Source: Lama guanicoe (taxonomy: Eukaryota). From it: a DNA stretch of 64,000 nucleotides. The stretch spans positions 14,562,373 to 14,626,372 of the forward strand of contig MU053881.1 in the NCBI GenBank assembly GCA_013239625.1, given 5' to 3'. The position numbers and the translations under genes are program-made. The notes under the pieces are model-generated. The model was not told where the DNA came from. It saw nothing but the letters and a program-made list of their open reading frames with translations, and did no database searches. Numbering within the stretch: the first letter of the stretch is position 1; each line of letters starts with the position of its first letter. This document shows positions 3,121 through 13,644 of this stretch, one piece after another.

Positions 3121-3546
3121 AGATTTTGCTTTAAAAAGAAAAGCAAAGCCCCGAATAGTCTGGCTCCAACCCACTACTGACAACCAGAGGGAATGGTTGT
3201 AAGCTGGATGTGGGCTTTGGGTCTTATCTGGAAGAGCTGCTGCATCCATAGGCTGTGGATGCAGGTGTCAGAGGCACCTACTGCCAGAGCTGCCACATAC
3301 AGAGCCCTAGGCTGGCTTCCCCAGGTTGGGTGACCACGACAGGTTGTTCTTTTCTGAGCTTCTCTCATGCTTATCTGTAAAATAGGGGTGGCATCCTCAG
3401 TGCTTCTGAGCACTCCCTGGCTGCCAGGTGCTGTGCTGCATGCTTAGGACCCAGCCCCGGGGGCTTAGGGCATTCAGGTTAGGCAGGAAGATGGGGAAAC
3501 CTGTGCCGCAGACTTTGAGTATGGGTATCCTTCCTTATATCCCCAG

Positions 3547-3747: not shown

Positions 3748-5728
3748 GTAAGGTGCAAGGGCTGCCACCCTCTGTCCACAGTCACTCCTCCAGCTCCACA
3801 GGCAGGATCCCTGGTCAGCAGGGGCGTAGCGTGTTTGGAGCTGTGGTCGGAGGTGCTGCCAGGCCTCCAGGCTGAGCCACAGGTCAGGGTGGAGCCCTTC
3901 AGGGTGAAGGTAAAGGATGGGGTGGAGAGGGGAGTGTGGAGGGGCTGCAGAATGTGGCTTCATTCTGGGAGCTGTGGGACCATTGTCCACTCATGGGGGC
4001 TGGTCTCCATCTGGTGGAGGGTGGGATCTCAGGGCAGTGTTCACTTGTGTCCTCATCCAGTGCTAGAGGAGGAGCTCCTCAATGTTAACCTGTCTCCAGC
4101 AGTTTGGGCCAGAGGTAACAAGCCTGCAGGTTGGAGCATGTGCTCTCCTGCCCAGGGAAGGATGGTCATTGGCTTTGGGTGAGCTAGTTCAGGCCCCATG
4201 GTGGTGGAGGGCAGAGGCGGGTGGCAGTGGAGGCACTCCTTGTGCATCCAGCCCTGTCCACATTCAGAACAAGACCTCAGTGCCATCTAAGCTATGTGGA
4301 GGACTGGGCCACCTCTGCTCCAGGATGGCTGGCACAGTCATATCTCTCTAACAGTGAGAACAGACTGAAGTGACCACATTGTTATGCCATGAAAGCCTCT
4401 AGACCCGTTGCTCTGGGTAAGGGTGCTGGCTTCAGGCCATATATCTGAGCAACTCTGTGGCCAACCTCAAACTTTGGAGCATTAGTTGAATGGAGCCAGT
4501 GAGGGTGGCATTCCCTCAGAGAGATGCTCAGGCAGTTCCAACAGTACCCTGCTGGGAACTGCCGCCTTACAAAGGGCAGTGGGTGTCTCTCAAGACCCTT
4601 GAGGCTTATTATGGATTGCGATTGATGTGACCTCAAAAAAGCACATGTGCTTGTAGAGTGACCAGGTCAGGGTCATTGCCAGGCATGTGGGAGGAAGTGA
4701 GGCTAAGGGGTAAGTTGGGCACAGAATGTCTCTAGGACCACTTAGGCCACACATCGTACCATCACCCCACCTCACCCCTGAGCTTTCTGGCAGCACAAGC
4801 AACAGGGGGAATAAAATTGGCCACAGGCTTAGTGTCTAGCCCCGTTGTCAAGAGGAACAAATGTTCCTAAGGACTGACTGACATCAAGAAACTTCTTCTG
4901 GGAGTTCTCATACAAGGGACATGAGCTGTATGGTGGCTGACAGATAGCCTCAGAAACAGGCCAGTAATAAATACAAAATCAAGTTCCGTGTGGCTCAAAA
5001 CGGAGGCTAATACAACTACAAAAATATATTTTTATAGCTTTGTTCACTGAAGATTTTGTAAAGTAGTGATTAAGCCTGTTGCAGTGAGCATCCCTGGTGC
5101 CCGGAAACCACGGAAACCAGGGCTTCTTGGAGAAATGGCTGGCTCTAGGTCTGGGCAGGAAGTGTCTGAGATGATCTTGAAGCACCCTGTCCCAGCAGAT
5201 AGTGAGGAGGCCATTAGAGACTCCTGGGGTCATGGCCAAAGGCCTCAGGAGCCAGCTTGAATAGGCCCCCTGGCCATAGAGGGGCTGACTGAGCTTTTGT
5301 GATGACATTGTGAAGCCCACTGATGGGCTTCTGACTTTGTAATGATATTTTTAAAAAAGAACTTGTCATTTTTGAAGGATAACAGTGGAGTGATTTATTA
5401 TACTGAACACTGGTTTAAAAAAAATTGACCATTCCAAAAAAGGAAGGGGAGGCTGGCTGTGTTTTTTGTCGTCTCTCTCCCAGCCTGGGGATTGACTTGG
5501 CCTTTGGGAGGCTTACACACTTTTCTCCCCTCAGCATGTCTCGCAGACTGTCTAGACCGACTCACCCCTCATCATGGTGCTTTGTGCATGGACCTGGGAC
5601 GCCCGACAACCTCCCGCATTTCACCCTCTTCTCCCCCCACCCCTCTGTCCTTGTGGTCCGTAGAGAGAGTGTGCCTGTTGACTGTGGGGTGTGTGAGTTG
5701 AACCCCAGTACTGACAGCCTCCTTAAAG

Positions 5729-5852
5729 TTTCACCCCCAGAGGGAGCCGAGACTCGGAAAGTGATAGAGAAATTGGCCCGCTTTGTGGCAGAAGGAGGCC
5801 CCGAGTTAGAAAAAGTAGCTATGGAGAACTACAAGGATAACCCGGCGTTTTC
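5729..5852 (+). CDS. SUGP1: SUGP1 exon 5 (SURP1 N-terminal half)
   Basis: ttaaag|TTTCACC...TTTTC|gtaag; [41 protein letters not shown]; alternative acceptor would start at 5741. Confidence 0.92.
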
Positions 5853-6180
5853 GTAAGTATTTCTGGGAGGGGAAGGCCACTGCTACTTCTTGTTCTTGTC
5901 ACACGTTAGTACATGCAGACGTTCTTGTAAAGCCGTAGTGGTGACAGGCTGGCCGGGGCTGGGTGCTTACTTGCACAAACCAGACACTGTTTGAGCGCTT
6001 TCTAACTCACACTGGAGGTTGCAAGGGGCTCCAGTATGGCGTGGAGACTTACTTTTGGGCCCCATCAAGGTGTCTGTGCTCGCCAGCTTGCTTTTGCACA
6101 ACGTGTCTTCAGAAGCTTCATGGGTCTGCCCATCCCCGTCGCTCATCTTCCACTCTCTGTTTTGCCCAATTCCTTTCCAG

Positions 6181-6281
6181 GTTTTTGCACGATAAGAATA
6201 GCAGGGAATTCCTCTACTACAGAAAGAAGGTGGCTGAGATAAGAAAGGAAGCACAGAAGTTGCAGACAGCCTCTCAGAAAG
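6181..6281 (+). CDS. SUGP1: SUGP1 exon 6 (SURP1 C-terminal half)
   Basis: ttccag|G...AAAG|gtagg; [26 protein letters not shown]. Confidence 0.95.
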
Positions 6282-7253
6282 GTAGGTGGTTGAAGGGGGT
6301 GGGAGGTTCTAGGGAGGCGTGTGGACAAACCACACCCCATGTGGAATGGGGGTTCCTTTCCTGGAGTCTGCTGTGGCATAGGGTGGCATCAACAGCACAG
6401 GTCTGTGCCCTCCCAGGCAGCTGGGGTCATGCTGGGGCTGGCTCTGTGCTCTCTGCTGGTACTCTGAGGGTAAGGAAATCTAAGGGTCAAGGTGAAGGTC
6501 AGAATCATGTCCAGGAGCTCAGCCCTGTGCATGTAAAGGGGGCATAGGGGAGGTACACTTGCCTCTTGTTGGTTCATGGTCACTTTCACAAGTGCTATTG
6601 AGCACCTGCTGCATGCTGAGCACTGAGGACACTTAGAGACAAGCAGTGCCTAACACTGTGAAGAGGGGCCAGGGGACAGAAACGGTCAGCTGGTGAGAGC
6701 CTGGTGGGATGTGTCAGGGGAGGGGGAGATGCCAGCTGGTTTCCAGGTGTAATGAAGTGAAATCACAGCCAGGTGCTGGTGGGCAGCAGGGGTATTGATG
6801 TTTAAGCTAAATGTGGGACACAGACGGTTCATTGTGTCTGTCACTTGCAGTCCCTTGCCCTGATCTTCTCCTCAAGAGAGGAGGGCCAGGCCCACCCCTA
6901 CCATGTGACCTGGGGCTGCAGCTCCCAGCAGAAAGACCGATGTTGGGGTTCCCATCCCCTCTCCAGCCTGGACCCAGACTTTCCCTCACATTCTGTTCCC
7001 ATGTCCTAGTGTGTGCCCAAAGCCTGCAGACCTGTGGGGTGGGAAGGGTCGGGATGTGGTGGGGCGGAGGCTTAAGATATATTATTATGTTAACTATGGT
7101 ATTTGGTTCCAGTACAGTAATCTGATTCCCATTTGCCTGTTTTTCTTTGTATTGTTCCTAAAATAAACCCCTCTTGTTGCCTGTGGGGTTCTTAGCAGAA
7201 ATTAGGCTGTTGGGTGTGGTGAGTTGAGCTCAGTACTGACAGCCTGCTTAAAG

Positions 7254-7377
7254 TTTCACCCCCAGAGGACGAAGAGGTCAAGAACCTCGCAGAAAAGTTG
7301 GCCAGGTTCATAGCAGATGGGGGTCCCGAGGTGGAAACCATTGCCCTCCAGAACAACCGCGAGAACCAGGCATTCAG
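7254..7377 (+). CDS. SUGP1: SUGP1 exon 7 (SURP2 N-terminal half)
   Basis: ttaaag|TTTCACC...TTCAG|gtaag; [41 protein letters not shown]; same length (124 nt) as exon 5; missing from the ORF track. Confidence 0.92.
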
Positions 7378-10284
7378 GTAAGGATGGGGGACCTGTTGGG
7401 GAGGTGATCCCTCACCCTAGTCAGAGCTTCCCTGCTGAGAGGTGTGGTGTTGAGATGTGCTAGGGTCCCATGGCAAGAAGTTGGCAGGGCCAGGACTCAG
7501 GTCCAAGAGGTTCTGACCACAGGGTTTTAGGCCTGCCACCCCGTAGCATTCCCTGAGTGCACATTGGTGCCCTGAATCGGCTCTTGAGATGGCTGTGTGG
7601 GGACCTTTGGGGCCTTGTGCCTCACAGAGAACATCTCTAGCACTTGCCTTGCTCCCTTTATACCAGAAACAGCAGCTCCAGGCTGGGGGCAGGCCAAGCT
7701 TTCAAACAGAAACTCACGGAATTGTTCACTGTGTACATTTTTGGGGTCTCATCTTTATGATAACGGGGAATGTGGTACCTCAGACTCTGGGGAGGGGCAA
7801 CCCCCAGCCTGTGTGTACTTTCCACAGAGGGGGTAGGACAAGCCACCTGGCATCCCTGCTGTTCCCAGCCATGGAGTCACACCCCAGCCCCTCAGACTGG
7901 GTCTGTGCTCACCCGCTCTTCCATTTATTGGGTGGGTTCAGAACCTGCTCTTTGCAGGGGAAGGCTGATGGGGACGGTGCGGAGGTGGGGGTGAGGCAAT
8001 CGCTGCTGCAGGGCAGGGACTCGAAGAGGTTTGTGAGGTGGACACTGAACCCGCTGTGAGGGTGATGCACCCATAAGGACACTTTTGGCCACAAGTAACA
8101 CAAGTCCCCAGTGAGTCAGTGAGGAGATGTGATGGTGCTTGTAACAAAAAGTGCCAGAGCAGCAGCCATCTGGGCTGGTTGATTCAGCAGCTCTAGACAC
8201 CATCAGGGACTCAGGAAGAAGGAAGCAGGAGTGGATGCTGGGCAGGCGGCCAGTCGCATCTACTACATGCGAGCTAGCATGAGCTAGACGTGGGACAAAG
8301 TGAAGGGCGTTTGGAGGGACTGCCTTGCAGAAGTGAGGCAACAGAGATGGGGGCGTTGTGCCACCATGGTGGGGATTCAGGGTGAGTGTTGGCATGGTGA
8401 AGACGGGCCATGAAGCCAGGCAGGGCTGAGTCCCAGAGGGCTCAAATGTTCACTGAGAACCTTTGGAGGGTCTGCATAGGGAGTGATGGGGTCAGCTGTG
8501 CTTCCAGGGTCATCTGGCCACAGCTGCGAAGGGTGGTCAGACACACCAGGTTGAGGCAGATGAGGGCATCATCAGGTGGGGGCTGAAGGGTTCAGGTGTA
8601 CCTGTGTATGGAACATGGCCAGCTAGGAGCTTTTGTGGGGGCTGTGGGGTTTGGGTCTAGAGTTCAGGAGACCTGGGATCTCCACAACATAGTGATACCA
8701 GCCACCACTCTGCTCTACCCAAACCAGTGTTTACTTAACATTCTACTTTAATTCACATCTTACTTTTTTTTTCATTTACATAAGTTTATTTAAATGGGGA
8801 ATGTAGTGTACTGTCACTCATCATGAGAAGAGCTGATTAAAAATCTATTATAGGCAGAGTGGGTGAGGTAATGGAATTCTGTACAAGGCCCAGAGCCCAG
8901 GTGGCTCTTCCTGGTCAGAGGGGCCCCAGGGCTGAGCAGCTCCAGCTGAGCCTTTCCCCTGGGGTCAAAGCGAAGAGATGTTACCACAAGTGGCTCTAGG
9001 CCCTCCATGGTACCTTTTGTGGGACATGGCTGGCAGGCATTGGCTTGTTGAGTGTGGCCTTGATGGATGCTGGGTGGTGACAGCCAGGAGTAAGGACAGA
9101 CCCTGAGGGTACCTGGCGGAGAAGCAGCTGAGGTTGACCAGCTTGCTTTGGGCGAGCTCATTTCCATGTCAGAGCTGAACCACAGTCAGTACTCTGCATT
9201 GGGGAAGAGTAAATGAGGTAAGATCAGGTGTCCAGCCCTGTGCAAGCCATGTAGGTTCATACCAAGCAGACTGTTACATCTTCACAAAGGGTCAGGTGCA
9301 AGGCAGCTCCTCTGGCACCCCCAGATCTAATAGCCACCTCAAGTTCCTGCCACTGTTGGTCCTTTCCTGCCCTCTTGATTCCCCAGCAGCTCTGTGTTTT
9401 GAAAAACAATGGTTAACAGCTATACGTGTCCGTAAAGAAGCTGGAAATACCTATTCCTTTGACCAGTCATCCCACTTCAGAGATGCCATCCCCAGAAATA
9501 ATGTTATACGTAGCACTGTCATAGTTACGAAAAATTAGTTAACACGTTCAATATCCAGCCCCAGTGGGCTAAACTCCTATAACTGCATCTCCCCAGTGGA
9601 ATTGTGGCCATCAGAAGGCAAGTTGGAGAAGGTGATAGCAGCCAGCACACCTCAAGTCACATGTGGCTCTAACATCACCCGGGTGAACCACGTTGTTCTG
9701 TACAACAGCCTGGCATGCTGGCCTCTTACAGGTGAGGAATCCGAGGCAAGGAGGCCAGTCAGTGGAGGTGCCTTCACTACCATGCTATGTTGCATTCTAA
9801 TGGGAAAGGAAAGCCTTATGTTGTCAAGTTAAGAAATTTTTTAAAAATCAGGGTGTGGAAAATAGAATCATGGCTCTGTTCATATAAATCCACACTGGAA
9901 AAAAGTCTGGAAGGAAAGGCACCAAAGTGTTAACTTTGGTTAACCCTGAGGGTGGGATCACTCCTACTAGAGGGGGTCTTTGCACCTGTGCCCGGGGCCC
10001 ACAGTGAGCTGTTACTCCCCTCACAGACAGGCATAGCTCTCAGGGCAGGTTGGAGGAGATTCAGTGTGAATAGGCAGCTGAGGCCAGGAAGAAGCCTGTG
10101 AGCTGAGAGGAGACCCACACCGTCAGGAGCTGCCCACCTGCCCCAGTGGGCGAATCCCCCAGTCTTCTTTGCTTGGAGGAACCGGATAGCTTTGAATCCA
10201 TGCTCTGGTTGCCATGAGTCTTTTTTAAATCCAGCCATCTGCTCGCTTCCCTGTTTGAATGATTTCTTGCTTTTGTCTCTTAAC

Positions 10285-12600
10285 TTTTTTTAAGATGTTA
10301 TTTTTCAGAGCAGTTTTAGCTTCACAGCAAAATTGAGTGGAAGGTGCAGAGACTTCGCGTGTGCCCCCTGCCCCAACACATGCACAGCCTCCCCCGTTAT
10401 CAACATCTCCCGCTAGAGTAGTATACTTGTTACAGTTGATGAACCTGTATTGACACATCATAATCACCCAAAGTCTATAGTTTATGTTAGGGTTCACTTT
10501 TCCTGCTGTATATTCTATGGATTTGGACAAATGTGTAGTGACATATATCCATCGTTGTGGTGTCATACGGAGTATTCTCAGTGCCCTAAAATTCCCCGTG
10601 TTCTGCCTATTCATCTCTTTTTCTTCCTTAACCCCAGGCAACCGCTGATTTTTTTTTCTGACTCCGTAGTTTTGCCTTTTCCAGAATGTCATATAATTGG
10701 AGTCATAGTATGTTGCCTTTTTGGATTGGCTTCTTTCACTTAGTAATATGCATTTAATTTAAGGTTGCTCCAAAGTTGTTGGGGTTTTTTTGGTTTTTTG
10801 TTTTGTTTTTTTTGTGTGTGTTTTTTGTTTGTTTGTTTGTTTTGCTTGATAGCTCATTTCTTTTTAGACTGAATGATTTTCCATTGTCTAGATGTACCAC
10901 AGTTTATTTATCCATTCATCTCCTGCATGGCATCTTGGTTGCTTCCAAGATTTGGCAATTATGAATAAAGTTGCTGTAAACATCTGTGTACAGGATTTTT
11001 GTGTGGACATAAATTTTCAACTCTTTTATACCAAGAAGTGTGATTGCTGGATCGTATGATACATTTAGTTTTGTAAGAAACTGGTTAACTGTCTTCCAGA
11101 GTGACTAGTATCAAGCAGAGAGAACATTTCTTAACCAGTAAGCCCTGAAGTGTGATAGTGTCAGTTCTCCAACTTTGTTCTTTTTCCATATTGTGTTGAC
11201 TGTTGTAGGGCTTTTGTCTCTCTGTATAAACTTTAGAATCAGATTGTCAATATTTGCAAAATAACTTGCTGGGATTTTGACTGGAATTGCACTGAATCTA
11301 GAAATCAAGTTGGAAATAACTGACATCTTGACAGTGGTGAGTCTTCCTATCCATGAACATGTAATCTCTTCATTTATTTAGTTCTTTGAATTCGTTCATC
11401 AGAGTTTTTTAGTTTTCCTCATATAGATCTTATACATATTTTGTTAGACTTATATCTAAGTAGTTCATTTTGGGAAATGCTAGTGTAAATGTTTTTAATT
11501 TCAAATTCTACGTGTTCATTGCTGGTGTGTAGGAATGTGATTGACTTCTGTATATTAATCTTGTATCCTGCAACCTTTCTATAATAGCTTGTTAATTCCA
11601 GGATGGGTTTTCTGGTCTTTGATCTGTTTTTTTTTCCTATGTAGATGATCATGTCATATTTCTTCCTTCTCAATCAGTACATCTTCTGTTTCCTTTTCTC
11701 ATCTTACTGCATTAGCTAGAACTTCCAGTATGATGATGAAAAGCATTGGAGGGGTGGGATATTCTTGCCTGGTTTCTGTTTTCAGTGGGAAAGCTTCAAG
11801 TTTCTTATGTAAGTATGATGTAAGATATAGGTTTTTTTATAGATATTCTTTATCAAGTGGAGGAAGTTCCCTTATGTTCCTAGTTTACTGAGAGTTTTCT
11901 TGTGAATGTATATTAGATTTTGTTAAATGCTTTTTCTGCAGCGATTGATATGATCATGTGATTTTTCTTCTTTAGCCTATTAATGTGATGGATTACACTA
12001 CTTTTTTTCCCCTTCTTTTGATGGGGGGAGGCCATTAGGATATTTATTTATTTTCTTAAATGGAGATATTGGGAACTGAACCCAGGACCTTGTGCATGCT
12101 AAGCATGCACTCCACCACCAGGCTGCACCCTCCCCCACCAGATTACATTACTTGATTTTCAAATGTTGAAGCAGCATTGTGTGCTTGAAATTAAGCCCAT
12201 TTGGTTGTGGTGTAGAACTCTTTTTATACATTGGTGGATTAAGTTTGCTAATGTTTCGTTGAGGATTTTTATATCTCTGTTCACGAGGGATGTTGGTCTG
12301 TAGTTTTCTTTCCTTGTAATGTTTCTGTCTGGTTTTAGTATTAGGGTAATTGAGTGAGTTAGGAAATGTTCTCTCTGCTTCTGTCCTCTGAAAGAGATTG
12401 TACAGAATTGGTGTGATCTTTTTCTTTAAATGTTGGGTAGAATTCACCAGTGAACTTTTGGAAGATTATTAATTATTGATTCAATTTCTTTAATAGAAAT
12501 AGGCCTGTTTAGATTGTCTGTTTCTTCTTGTGTGAGTTCTGGCAGATTGTATCTTTCAAAGAATTGGTTCATTTCATCTAGGTTATCAGATTTGTGGCAT
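10285..12600 (-). mobile_element. Old L1 fragments (3'UTR and ORF2 pieces) in SUGP1 intron 7
   Basis: Minus-strand ORFs with L1 ORF2-like peptides (LNRPISIKEIESIINNLP; INIQKSITFLHTSNE; FSAIPVKIP). Confidence 0.85.
12002..12138 (-). mobile_element. tRNA-derived SINE nested in L1
   Basis: gaacccaggaccttgtgcatgctaagcatgcac; flanking direct repeat gattacactac/gattacattac. Confidence 0.85.
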
Positions 12601-13644
12601 AGAGGCCAGTCTCCCCATCCCTCCATCCCACTCTAGGTATTGATGTTATTAACAGACCTAGGAGTTCTTCCATCCCTTTCCCAGCTCTCATGTAGAAATA
12701 GTCTGTGGGTTTTTTCTGCTAACTTTCTCTTATATAGAAGGAATTTACATCATCCTTGAGCCTGCATGTTACTTTTGTAGTACAGCATTGTACCATGACT
12801 GTCCCTCCAGGTTCACGAGTATAGGTGTAGCCTCTTCTTGTCAAGGGCTGTGTAATCTGTGCTGTGTATAGATTTTGCTGTATGGAACTGGGCTGTGACT
12901 CTTCTCTCTGGTGTGGACCCCAGAGTTGGGACAGTTGGCTCAGTATGTGCATAGTCTAAGAGATGCTGGGCAGGTGCAGAGGGAGCTACAGCCTCTGCCA
13001 GCTCTGAACCCAGCACCACTTGCTCTGCATTTGGGAACCCACAGCTTCCAGCGAGGCTGGCAGTGAGTTCCCTGTTCATTCCAGTGTTCAGTGTCTTTGT
13101 TTTGGCTCTGTTCACTCCTGATGCCTCTTAAGGATGCTTCAGAAAGGAGCACAAGTGTGCCCAGCTGTTAGGTTTGGGACAAATCCTGCCCTTCCTGGCA
13201 CCAGGTGTCTCTGGCAATTCAGGATTTCTTGGTTTGTGGGCACTGGTGCCCTCGTCTAGGGCAGCAGGGGAAAAATCCCTGCAGAGCCTTGGGAAGGTCT
13301 GAGAGAGCCCACACCATTTCCTTCAAAGCACAGGATCAGTGATAGTTTAACAGGCATACAGTAAAGATGGAATGGGGGTTTGGAGTGGCTCACAGCTCAC
13401 AGGAACAGCATCATGACAGTCTGTGGGCATGTCACACTGTTCGATAAGTTAGGGCCACCAGAGCCAGTACCCACTGAGGCTAGGCAGGGAAGGAGATCAT
13501 GATAGAGACCTCCATCTTGACATGATCCTGAAGTGACCCTGGCCGACCTGAGTGTGCCTATGCAAGGCCCACACTTCTCCTGCCCTAAATCAGGGGTAGG
13601 GGACTGAGGCTCAAAGATGGTGTTCCTCCCACTCTCCTTTGCAG

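Follow-up and report, generated by a model that had tools for sequence, protein, structure and literature searches.

How can a sequence that resembles a 5′ splice site influence the choice of a 3′ splice site without being spliced itself? In SNRNP70, the gene of U1-70K, use of an alternative acceptor in intron 7 needs regulatory donors located downstream of it (PMC3798272). We analyzed a stretch of 64,000 nucleotides from Lama guanicoe (contig MU053881.1, hereafter the window), where introns 4 and 6 of SUGP1 end in a manner like that of SNRNP70: a splicing-factor gene has a conserved alternative acceptor that brings a stop codon and decay, and donor-like sites lie just downstream (PMC3798272). 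In SNRNP70 these sites, hardly used in splicing, are clustered far inside the intron and may give rise to an exon, 7a (PMC3798272), whereas SUGP1 has a single site per unit. Unlike the sites of SNRNP70, that of SUGP1 is wedged 20 nt before the productive branch point and is unjoinable to the next exon, and the whole unit occurs twice. The alternative acceptors of SUGP1 carry an in-frame stop and are used in human, with decay shown by emetine for intron 6, and they are followed 29 and 20/23 nt downstream by a donor-like motif that is conserved among vertebrates according to protein records. U1 dependence has been shown for SNRNP70 (PMC3798272) and is represented for SUGP1 by computed duplex energies; the SUGP1 unit would work like the SNRNP70 switch and is a candidate member of that class.

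Deeply conserved pseudo-exons of 29 nt and more, with motifs of both splice sites, are known as decoys in SF3B1 intron 4, OGT, and ARGLU1 (PMC6097662), and the candidate pseudo-exons of SUGP1 resemble them in being short and in having both motifs. Decoys lie inside an intron and promote its retention (PMC6097662), while the SUGP1 pseudo-exon abuts the terminal acceptor and its documented product is an extended exon. SUGP1 is not named in the main text of the decoy-exon paper (PMC6097662). Decoy exons belong to introns over 1 kb; introns 4 and 6 measure 1981 and 972 nt here, and 2000 and 958 nt in human. The acceptor of Sex-lethal exon 3 reportedly consists of a branch point, a proximal AG, a pyrimidine run, and a distal AG, and SUGP1 has its AAG and then a CAG at +12 as proximal and distal AGs, both of which, unlike those of Sex-lethal, are in frame and productive. 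The dual AG of Sex-lethal is regulated by SPF45/RBM17 (PMC9984181).

Part of the output of the SUGP1 unit has been described in human. Knockdown of AQR activates a site 58 nt upstream in SUGP1 intron 6, the resulting form brings a stop codon and is degraded as shown with emetine, and SUGP1 protein becomes 50-60% lower; SF3B1 mutation does not induce the event (PMC12434867). The −58 acceptor of the window is the orthologue of this site, with the same distance, stop, and decay, and in that study the human site is called novel, cryptic, and a case of mis-splicing (PMC12434867). The text passages of PMC12434867 on SUGP1 do not discuss a 65-nt event in intron 4 (the words 'intron 4' have no match there), nor duplication, conservation, or a donor-like motif. 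Cryptic acceptors of SF3B1 mutants lie 10-30 nt upstream (PMC7790757). We rejected the SF3B1-mutant/SUGP1-loss class of acceptors for the present sites, which lie 55-65 nt upstream, the intron-6 event not being induced by SF3B1 mutation; a search of 12 of the 15 files of PMC12434867 gave no row for the SUGP1 gene in the SF3B1 event tables.

Anatomy of the two intron ends

The first-pass annotation of this DNA had named the gene correctly: a protein search with the exon-5 peptide returned SUGP1 from mammals, birds, and reptiles, and an open frame runs through exons 4, 5, 6, and 7 after in-silico splicing. Exons 5 and 7 have 124 nt each. Introns 4 and 6 both begin with a GT donor of the ordinary major class, and a minor (U12-type) reading of TCCTTAAAG was rejected, as these donors are U2-type and do not agree with RTATCCT. 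Two tandem motifs resembling U11 donors, GTATCCT and ATATCCC, lie in the acceptor tract of exon 4 (3525-3546) and recall the U11 enhancer of SNRNP48/RNPC3; they may occur by chance, because there are seven such motifs in the first 26 kb. Translated peptides revealed coding stretches on both strands 3′ of SUGP1 (28500-50100), which look like TM6SF2 and HAPLN4 on the + strand and NCAN on the − strand. Intron 4 also has a 54-nt in-frame candidate cassette exon with good splice sites (4061-4114); it is used in dromedary gene models with an identical 18-residue peptide, and in porpoise models with a different end. By eye, the human forward RT primer of PMC12434867 resembles exon 6.

Both intron ends (Table 1) share one order of elements: an upstream AG, a GU-rich run with GTGAGT, TGA, CAG, TACTGAC, CAG, a linker, and AAG. 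Past the AAG, inside exons 5 and 7, a pyrimidine run is followed by CAG at +12 in both cassettes. The earlier placement of GTGAGT at 5693-5698 and 7219-7224, about 20 nt before the branch A and 35-36 nt before the AAG, agrees with the sequence: the motifs lie 36 and 35 nt from the acceptors of exons 5 and 7, and 21 and 20 nt from the predicted branch A, at 5714 and 7239, which is −15 in both introns. The five supplements of PMC12002318 with branch-site data contain no SUGP1 row.

Table 1. Features of the SUGP1 region in the window (positions counted from its first nucleotide)
Feature	Position	Strand	Remark
Far-upstream acceptor, intron 4	5512..5534	+	pyrimidine tract and CAG, −194; out of frame here
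Upstream poison acceptor, intron 4	5613..5663	+	TAG at −65 after a long pyrimidine tract; branch candidate weak (A near 5623)
65-nt extension of exon 5	5664..5728	+	12 residues, then stop; the same 12 residues end record P0303
CTGTTG	5675..5680	+	possible 5′ arm pairing with TGACAG over branch A
GTGAGT donor-like motif, cassette 1 (tgt/GTGAGT)	5690..5701	+	GT at 5693; premature stop TGA 5699-5701
Productive exon-5 acceptor	5709..5728	+	TACTGAC, CAG 4 nt later, short mixed linker, AAG
Exonic pyrimidine run and downstream CAG	5729..5740	+	+12, in frame; four residues removed
SUGP1 exon 5	5729..5852	+	start of SURP repeat 1
SUGP1 exon 6	6181..6281	+	in-silico splicing
Upstream poison acceptor, intron 6	7165..7198	+	tandem TAG (−58, ends 7195) and CAG (−55, ends 7198)
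58/55-nt extension of exon 7	7196..7253	+	10 or 9 residues, then stop
Predicted hairpin over GTGAGT and branch heptamer, cassette 2	7203..7246	+	folding
GTGAGT donor-like motif, cassette 2 (gtg/GTGAGT)	7216..7227	+	GT at 7219; premature stop TGA 7225-7227
Productive exon-7 acceptor	7234..7253	+	TACTGAC, CAG, linker, AAG
SUGP1 exon 7	7254..7377	+	start of SURP repeat 2; +12 CAG at 7263-7265

The pseudo-exons drawn between the upstream acceptors and the motif were also right as to the TAG at 5663 (29 nt) and the CAG at 7198 (20 nt), with one omission: the TAG ending at 7195 gives a 23-nt pseudo-exon and is the very site reported in human. Within the gene region, the branch sequence is matched best at the productive acceptors, which however have just 10-11 pyrimidines of 17, versus 14-15 for exons 4, 6, and 8. 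The upstream acceptors have weak branch candidates and 12, 10, and 9 pyrimidines of 17 at −20..−4, not above the productive ones; the tract of the −65 acceptor reaches much further than this stretch. Intron 4 has at least three non-productive or variant acceptors, and blue whale and porpoise models continue with the peptide encoded after the CAG at 5534 (about −194).

How similar are the two cassettes? The last 23 bases of introns 4 and 6 are identical at 22 positions, a score reached in 0 of 500 shuffles, and the part from −65 to −24 is alignable as well (0/500), that from −200 to −111 not (358/500), so that the likeness extends to about −110 and is then gone. Exons 5 and 7 share 80 of 124 bases, 22 of 40 residues, and, outside the first codons, three of seven four-fold sites. 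Far less alike are the matching donor flanks (55/500 shuffles) and the acceptors of exons 6 and 8 (11/500). GTGAGT occurs 24 times on the + strand of the 64 kb, or by chance in about 0.8% of 21-nt windows; the two cassettes are paralogues and not independent, and therefore the real test is retention during evolution rather than the double occurrence. The pattern GTGAGTTGA-N2..6-CAGTACTGACAG has exactly two matches in the 2.05-Gb assembly, and its reversed control has none.

The stop codon following GTGAGT was considered as a reason for the motif and rejected: later in-frame stops are present in both cassettes, so that conservation of GTGAGT is not explained by its stop. A coding reason for the conserved read-through peptide is unlikely in cassette 2, because its frames are closed and yet the intron end is nearly identical to that of cassette 1. 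The last 310 nt of intron 4 (within 5419-5853) are stop-free in the frame of exon 5 and well kept among mammals, and this stretch of cassette 1, open from 5419, may have a minor coding use. An intronic small RNA (snoRNA, mirtron, or another Rfam family) was also rejected, as an Rfam scan of 5300-7600 to an E-value of 5 gave nothing over the element and one chance match elsewhere.

Use and conservation of the upstream acceptors

The claim that the flanking upstream acceptors are plausible splice sites has turned out well. The 65-nt and 58-nt distances of the human events equal those of the TAGs at 5663 and 7195. On AQR knockdown, PSI of the 58-nt event in intron 6 rises from 0.017 to 0.158, and that of the 65-nt site in intron 4, marked 'annotated', from 0.084 to 0.368 (PMC12434867, Table S7). 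From its stop codon, the 65-nt form would be degraded as well. AQR loss activates about 2,400 cryptic acceptors (PMC12434867), and for this reason the AQR-sensitivity of SUGP1 is not special and is no proof of design. Among 55 upstream rows examined in Table S7, which as searched has 2,182 rows against 2,407 events stated in PMC12434867, 38 lie within 30 nt and eight at 50 nt or more. Upstream acceptors activated by AQR loss are listed in this table for DHX15 (50 nt) and TFIP11 (18 nt) as well; RBM17, CHERP, U2SURP, and SUGP2 have no row in it as searched.

Protein records tell the same. The 12 residues of the window's exon-5 extension are also the last 12 encoded by the human cDNA BAG57801.1, isoform 14 of chimpanzee and orangutan ends in the nine residues of the −55 form, and two further records show the −58 and −55 forms together with the end of intron 4 (the −58/−55 records are P0246, P0249, and P0250). 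The same stop-ending extensions are encoded by a human cDNA and by bird and ape/carnivore-like records; two records of the bird cluster have a 12-residue exon-5 extension, the same length as here, and an elephant RefSeq model starts across the junction of exon 4 and −65 in another frame. Among 340 records reaching the end of exon 4, 253 have the canonical junction, 16 enter at +12, three at −65, and eight at a farther primate acceptor; 48 go on with glycine or serine, mostly as intron read-through, and 12 are others or end there. Among 293 reaching the end of exon 6, 269 are canonical, eight use +12, three use −58/−55, five read into the intron, and eight are others. These tallies count protein records and not transcript levels, with decayed forms under-represented. 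Three rodent-like records, in which exon 6 is followed by another 10-residue tail, were taken neither for nor against the −58 form: the tail scores 2 against the −58 extension and matches best inside exon 8 (score 19, next 17), and such records may enter exon 8 internally (about 13707) from exon 6. Roughly half of the sequence words in the 4-kb stretch recur in RNA runs of a near relative, an unaligned word share that is not evidence.

Other variants are found around these exons. The in-frame +12 CAG (5738-5740 and 7263-7265) is used in mammal, bird, and turtle models, taking four residues off the start of each SURP repeat. The far primate acceptor of intron 4 leads to a 218-222-residue human 'splice variant b', and is in frame in macaque and meets stops in apes. 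Isoform 7 of human and apes appears to skip exon 5 and to enter exon 6 internally (6222). Another decay-linked event of SUGP1 is skipping of exon 8 (PMC5181593).

Is the element old? A metagenome scan for orthologous DNA with the exon 5/7 alignment gave 268 pattern matches and 0 confirmed, and therefore conservation was deduced from protein records reading through the intron end, many of which are predictions. The 19 residues before exon 5 agree with the window at 19 positions in whale, 18 in macaque, 16 in elephant, and 17 in bobwhite quail, and a lizard model keeps the last nine. In mudskipper, a single fish gene model, the end of intron 6 is in the same 13-residue register with nine of 13 identical. 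In two bird models and one cichlid model only the last few residues match, probably because they splice in nearby. The residues C-E-L spanning the motif are kept in 65 of 74 read-through stretches, these records being redundant and not independent. When two reading frames, taken from different bird records, are combined, 44-46 of 65 positions of the bird intron end become fixed, 37-40 of them equal to the window, and −39..−28 reads TGT/GTGAG[C/T]T[A/G]A, with C or T at position +6. Mammals separated from birds and teleosts roughly 320-430 million years ago. The protein records thus suggest that the element is old, kept in mammals, birds, and one teleost, and non-conservation, proposed beforehand as the observation that would speak against a function of the motif, is not what they reveal. 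Very probably, the element is a genuine and conserved splice switch, whatever its exact mode of action.

A donor-like motif before the predicted branch point

The upstream acceptors are real, and the motif is conserved and, with only 35-36 nt left, cannot join the following exon as had been pointed out; a decoy role of GTGAGT against the branch point is therefore plausible. Conservation of GTGAGT goes beyond the needs of its stop, and therefore something reads the motif. What is the reader? Our first choice, held tentatively, is that GTGAGT acts as an unspliced regulatory donor favoring the upstream nonsense-decay acceptor over the one defined by the branch point. A conserved choice between two 3′ splice sites ahead of each SURP exon would then link the amount of SUGP1 produced to nonsense-mediated decay. 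In this choice, the productive acceptor combines a near-ideal predicted branch sequence 15 nt before the AAG with a poor tract, a second tract and CAG lying just inside the exon, and the poison acceptor 65 (or 58/55) nt upstream has a weaker branch candidate. U1 on GTGAGT would assist recognition of the upstream acceptor over 20-29 nt and, at the same time, crowd U2 assembly at the branch point 20 nt downstream. SF3a/b anchor on the stretch upstream of a branch point, and U1 on the motif would overlap it. Because the 35-36-nt gap cannot be excised, the message would be extended, meet a stop, and be degraded.

The duplex energies, calculated with the generally known U1 sequence, qualify this reading. 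GTGAGT had been called a perfect donor motif, which is true for +1..+6 only: the duplex with tgt/GTGAGT of cassette 1 is weak (−5.5 kcal/mol, rank 95 of 676 GT sites in 3751-13600), and that with gtg/GTGAGT of cassette 2 is moderate (−9.2 kcal/mol, rank 16 of 676), against −7.6 to −13.3 kcal/mol for five true donors. Weak pairing of the cassette-1 motif speaks against the regulatory donor, as does its conserved UG-repeat context, which could be read by a protein.

Close behind, and possible in our estimation, is the same poison-acceptor switch with another reader: the GU-rich run would be a protein site and/or contribute the 5′ arm to a hairpin masking the branch point, its likeness to a donor being incidental. 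Binders of UG repeats, such as TDP-43 or CELF, are candidates. The conserved context, TGTGTGAG, with non-consensus exonic positions, is in line with this, and the productive site is relieved by an RNA helicase, AQR. The hairpin predicted in cassette 2 (−20.8 kcal/mol, z −3.24, 0/200 shuffles) leaves the branch heptamer an unpaired probability of 0.07, whereas for cassette 1, which is the switch in greater use, the fold does not stand out from shuffles (z −0.94, 28/200). CTGTT is kept in both cassettes and in the two-frame solution of birds, but the sixth base of the arm is G or A in birds, and the arm is out of register in the fish model. In cassette 1, GTGAGT is in a predicted loop of the shortest fold (unpaired 0.97), and its place in that loop favors a reader of sequence, in line with our first choice; its predicted accessibility of 0.01 in the longest fold speaks against that choice.

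The 29-nt and 20/23-nt segments are unlikely to serve as poison micro-exons, or as decoys whose main effect is intron detention, the outcome that the first-pass annotation had expected. Acceptor and donor motifs are indeed both present and conserved, the segments are non-triplet, and the SF3B1 decoy exons measure 29-56 nt (PMC6097662). The 48 of 340 records that pass the end of exon 4 with glycine or serine would also fit detention, though many of these records may derive from genomic contigs. Against this, the upstream acceptors are spliced straight through the SURP exon as 65-, 58-, and 55-nt extensions with an in-frame stop, and Table S7 lists both human events as plain alternative 3′ splice sites (PMC12434867). 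Junctions predicted from donors at 5692 and 7218 appear in none of three upstream-acceptor records on the exon-4 side and none of three on the exon-6 side, which is a weak test with records so few and biased against decayed forms; neither a micro-exon product nor a donor junction was found among 442 protein records, a search of low power.

Much less probable is that the upstream acceptors are a non-regulatory leak and that conservation reflects the needs of a tract-poor acceptor, with the GU run as a constitutive enhancer: the productive acceptors do combine the best branch match with a weak tract and the intron-6 event is just 1.7% at baseline, but the −65 acceptor is spliced at the exact same position in human and bird records and reaches 8.4% even with decay active. 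Recent functionless gene conversion, to which the near-identical block from −23 into the exon, three four-fold sites included, might point, is already largely refuted and hardly credible, as the same intron end is found in mammals, birds, lizard, and teleost, and as the first exon-5 codons of birds and turtles differ from those of exon 7 while their intron end stays.

The switch and the dose of SUGP1

Loss of SUGP1 reproduces most of the cryptic acceptor use of cancer SF3B1 mutations, and a drop of 50-60% already gives part of it (PMC12434867). Therefore, whatever sets the dose of SUGP1 matters, and the switch probably sets how much SUGP1 protein a cell makes. The protein loss on AQR knockdown has been credited to a single 'cryptic' site in intron 6, whereas Table S7 of the same paper holds a larger event in intron 4 (PMC12434867). 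If both events are taken as independent, 59% of the control productive fraction is left, versus 86% for intron 6 alone, and the former is nearer to the reported loss of protein.

Does SUGP1 also regulate itself? No report of autoregulation was found in a full-text literature with few subscription papers, including term look-ups in PMC12434867, PMC7790757, PMC10760632, PMC5181593, and preprints, and a look-up of terms in 10.1101/2022.11.13.516350 gave no passage. Endogenous SUGP1 was unchanged when mutants defective in SF3B1 binding were expressed (PMC10760632), which is neutral to mildly negative for autoregulation. A more far-reaching view, rather improbable in our opinion, is that SUGP1, the activator of DHX15-driven spliceosome discard, would meter itself through a built-in proofreading substrate, present in two copies in series and retained from early bony vertebrates onward, and would form a homeostat of the ratio of proofreading to activation. 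In each copy, a U1 site that cannot be spliced would put a tract-poor branch point at a disadvantage. Once discard runs ahead of activation by AQR, splicing would shift to the upstream acceptors and SUGP1 would fall, and the two switches would multiply.

Of the two events, that at −58 is already in print, where it counts as mis-splicing, and that at −65 is an annotated one. Full-text searches of a literature with few subscription papers gave no description of the pair as a duplicated, vertebrate-conserved unit enclosing a donor-like motif; we regard the element as real and old, its outputs as partly known, and its architecture as new. If the two events, instead of being errors, make up the halves of one duplicated and conserved switch, SUGP1 would offer a compact and testable model of how a donor-like site steers acceptor choice within a branch region, and the poison acceptors would be suggested targets for antisense molecules, to be blocked so as to raise SUGP1.
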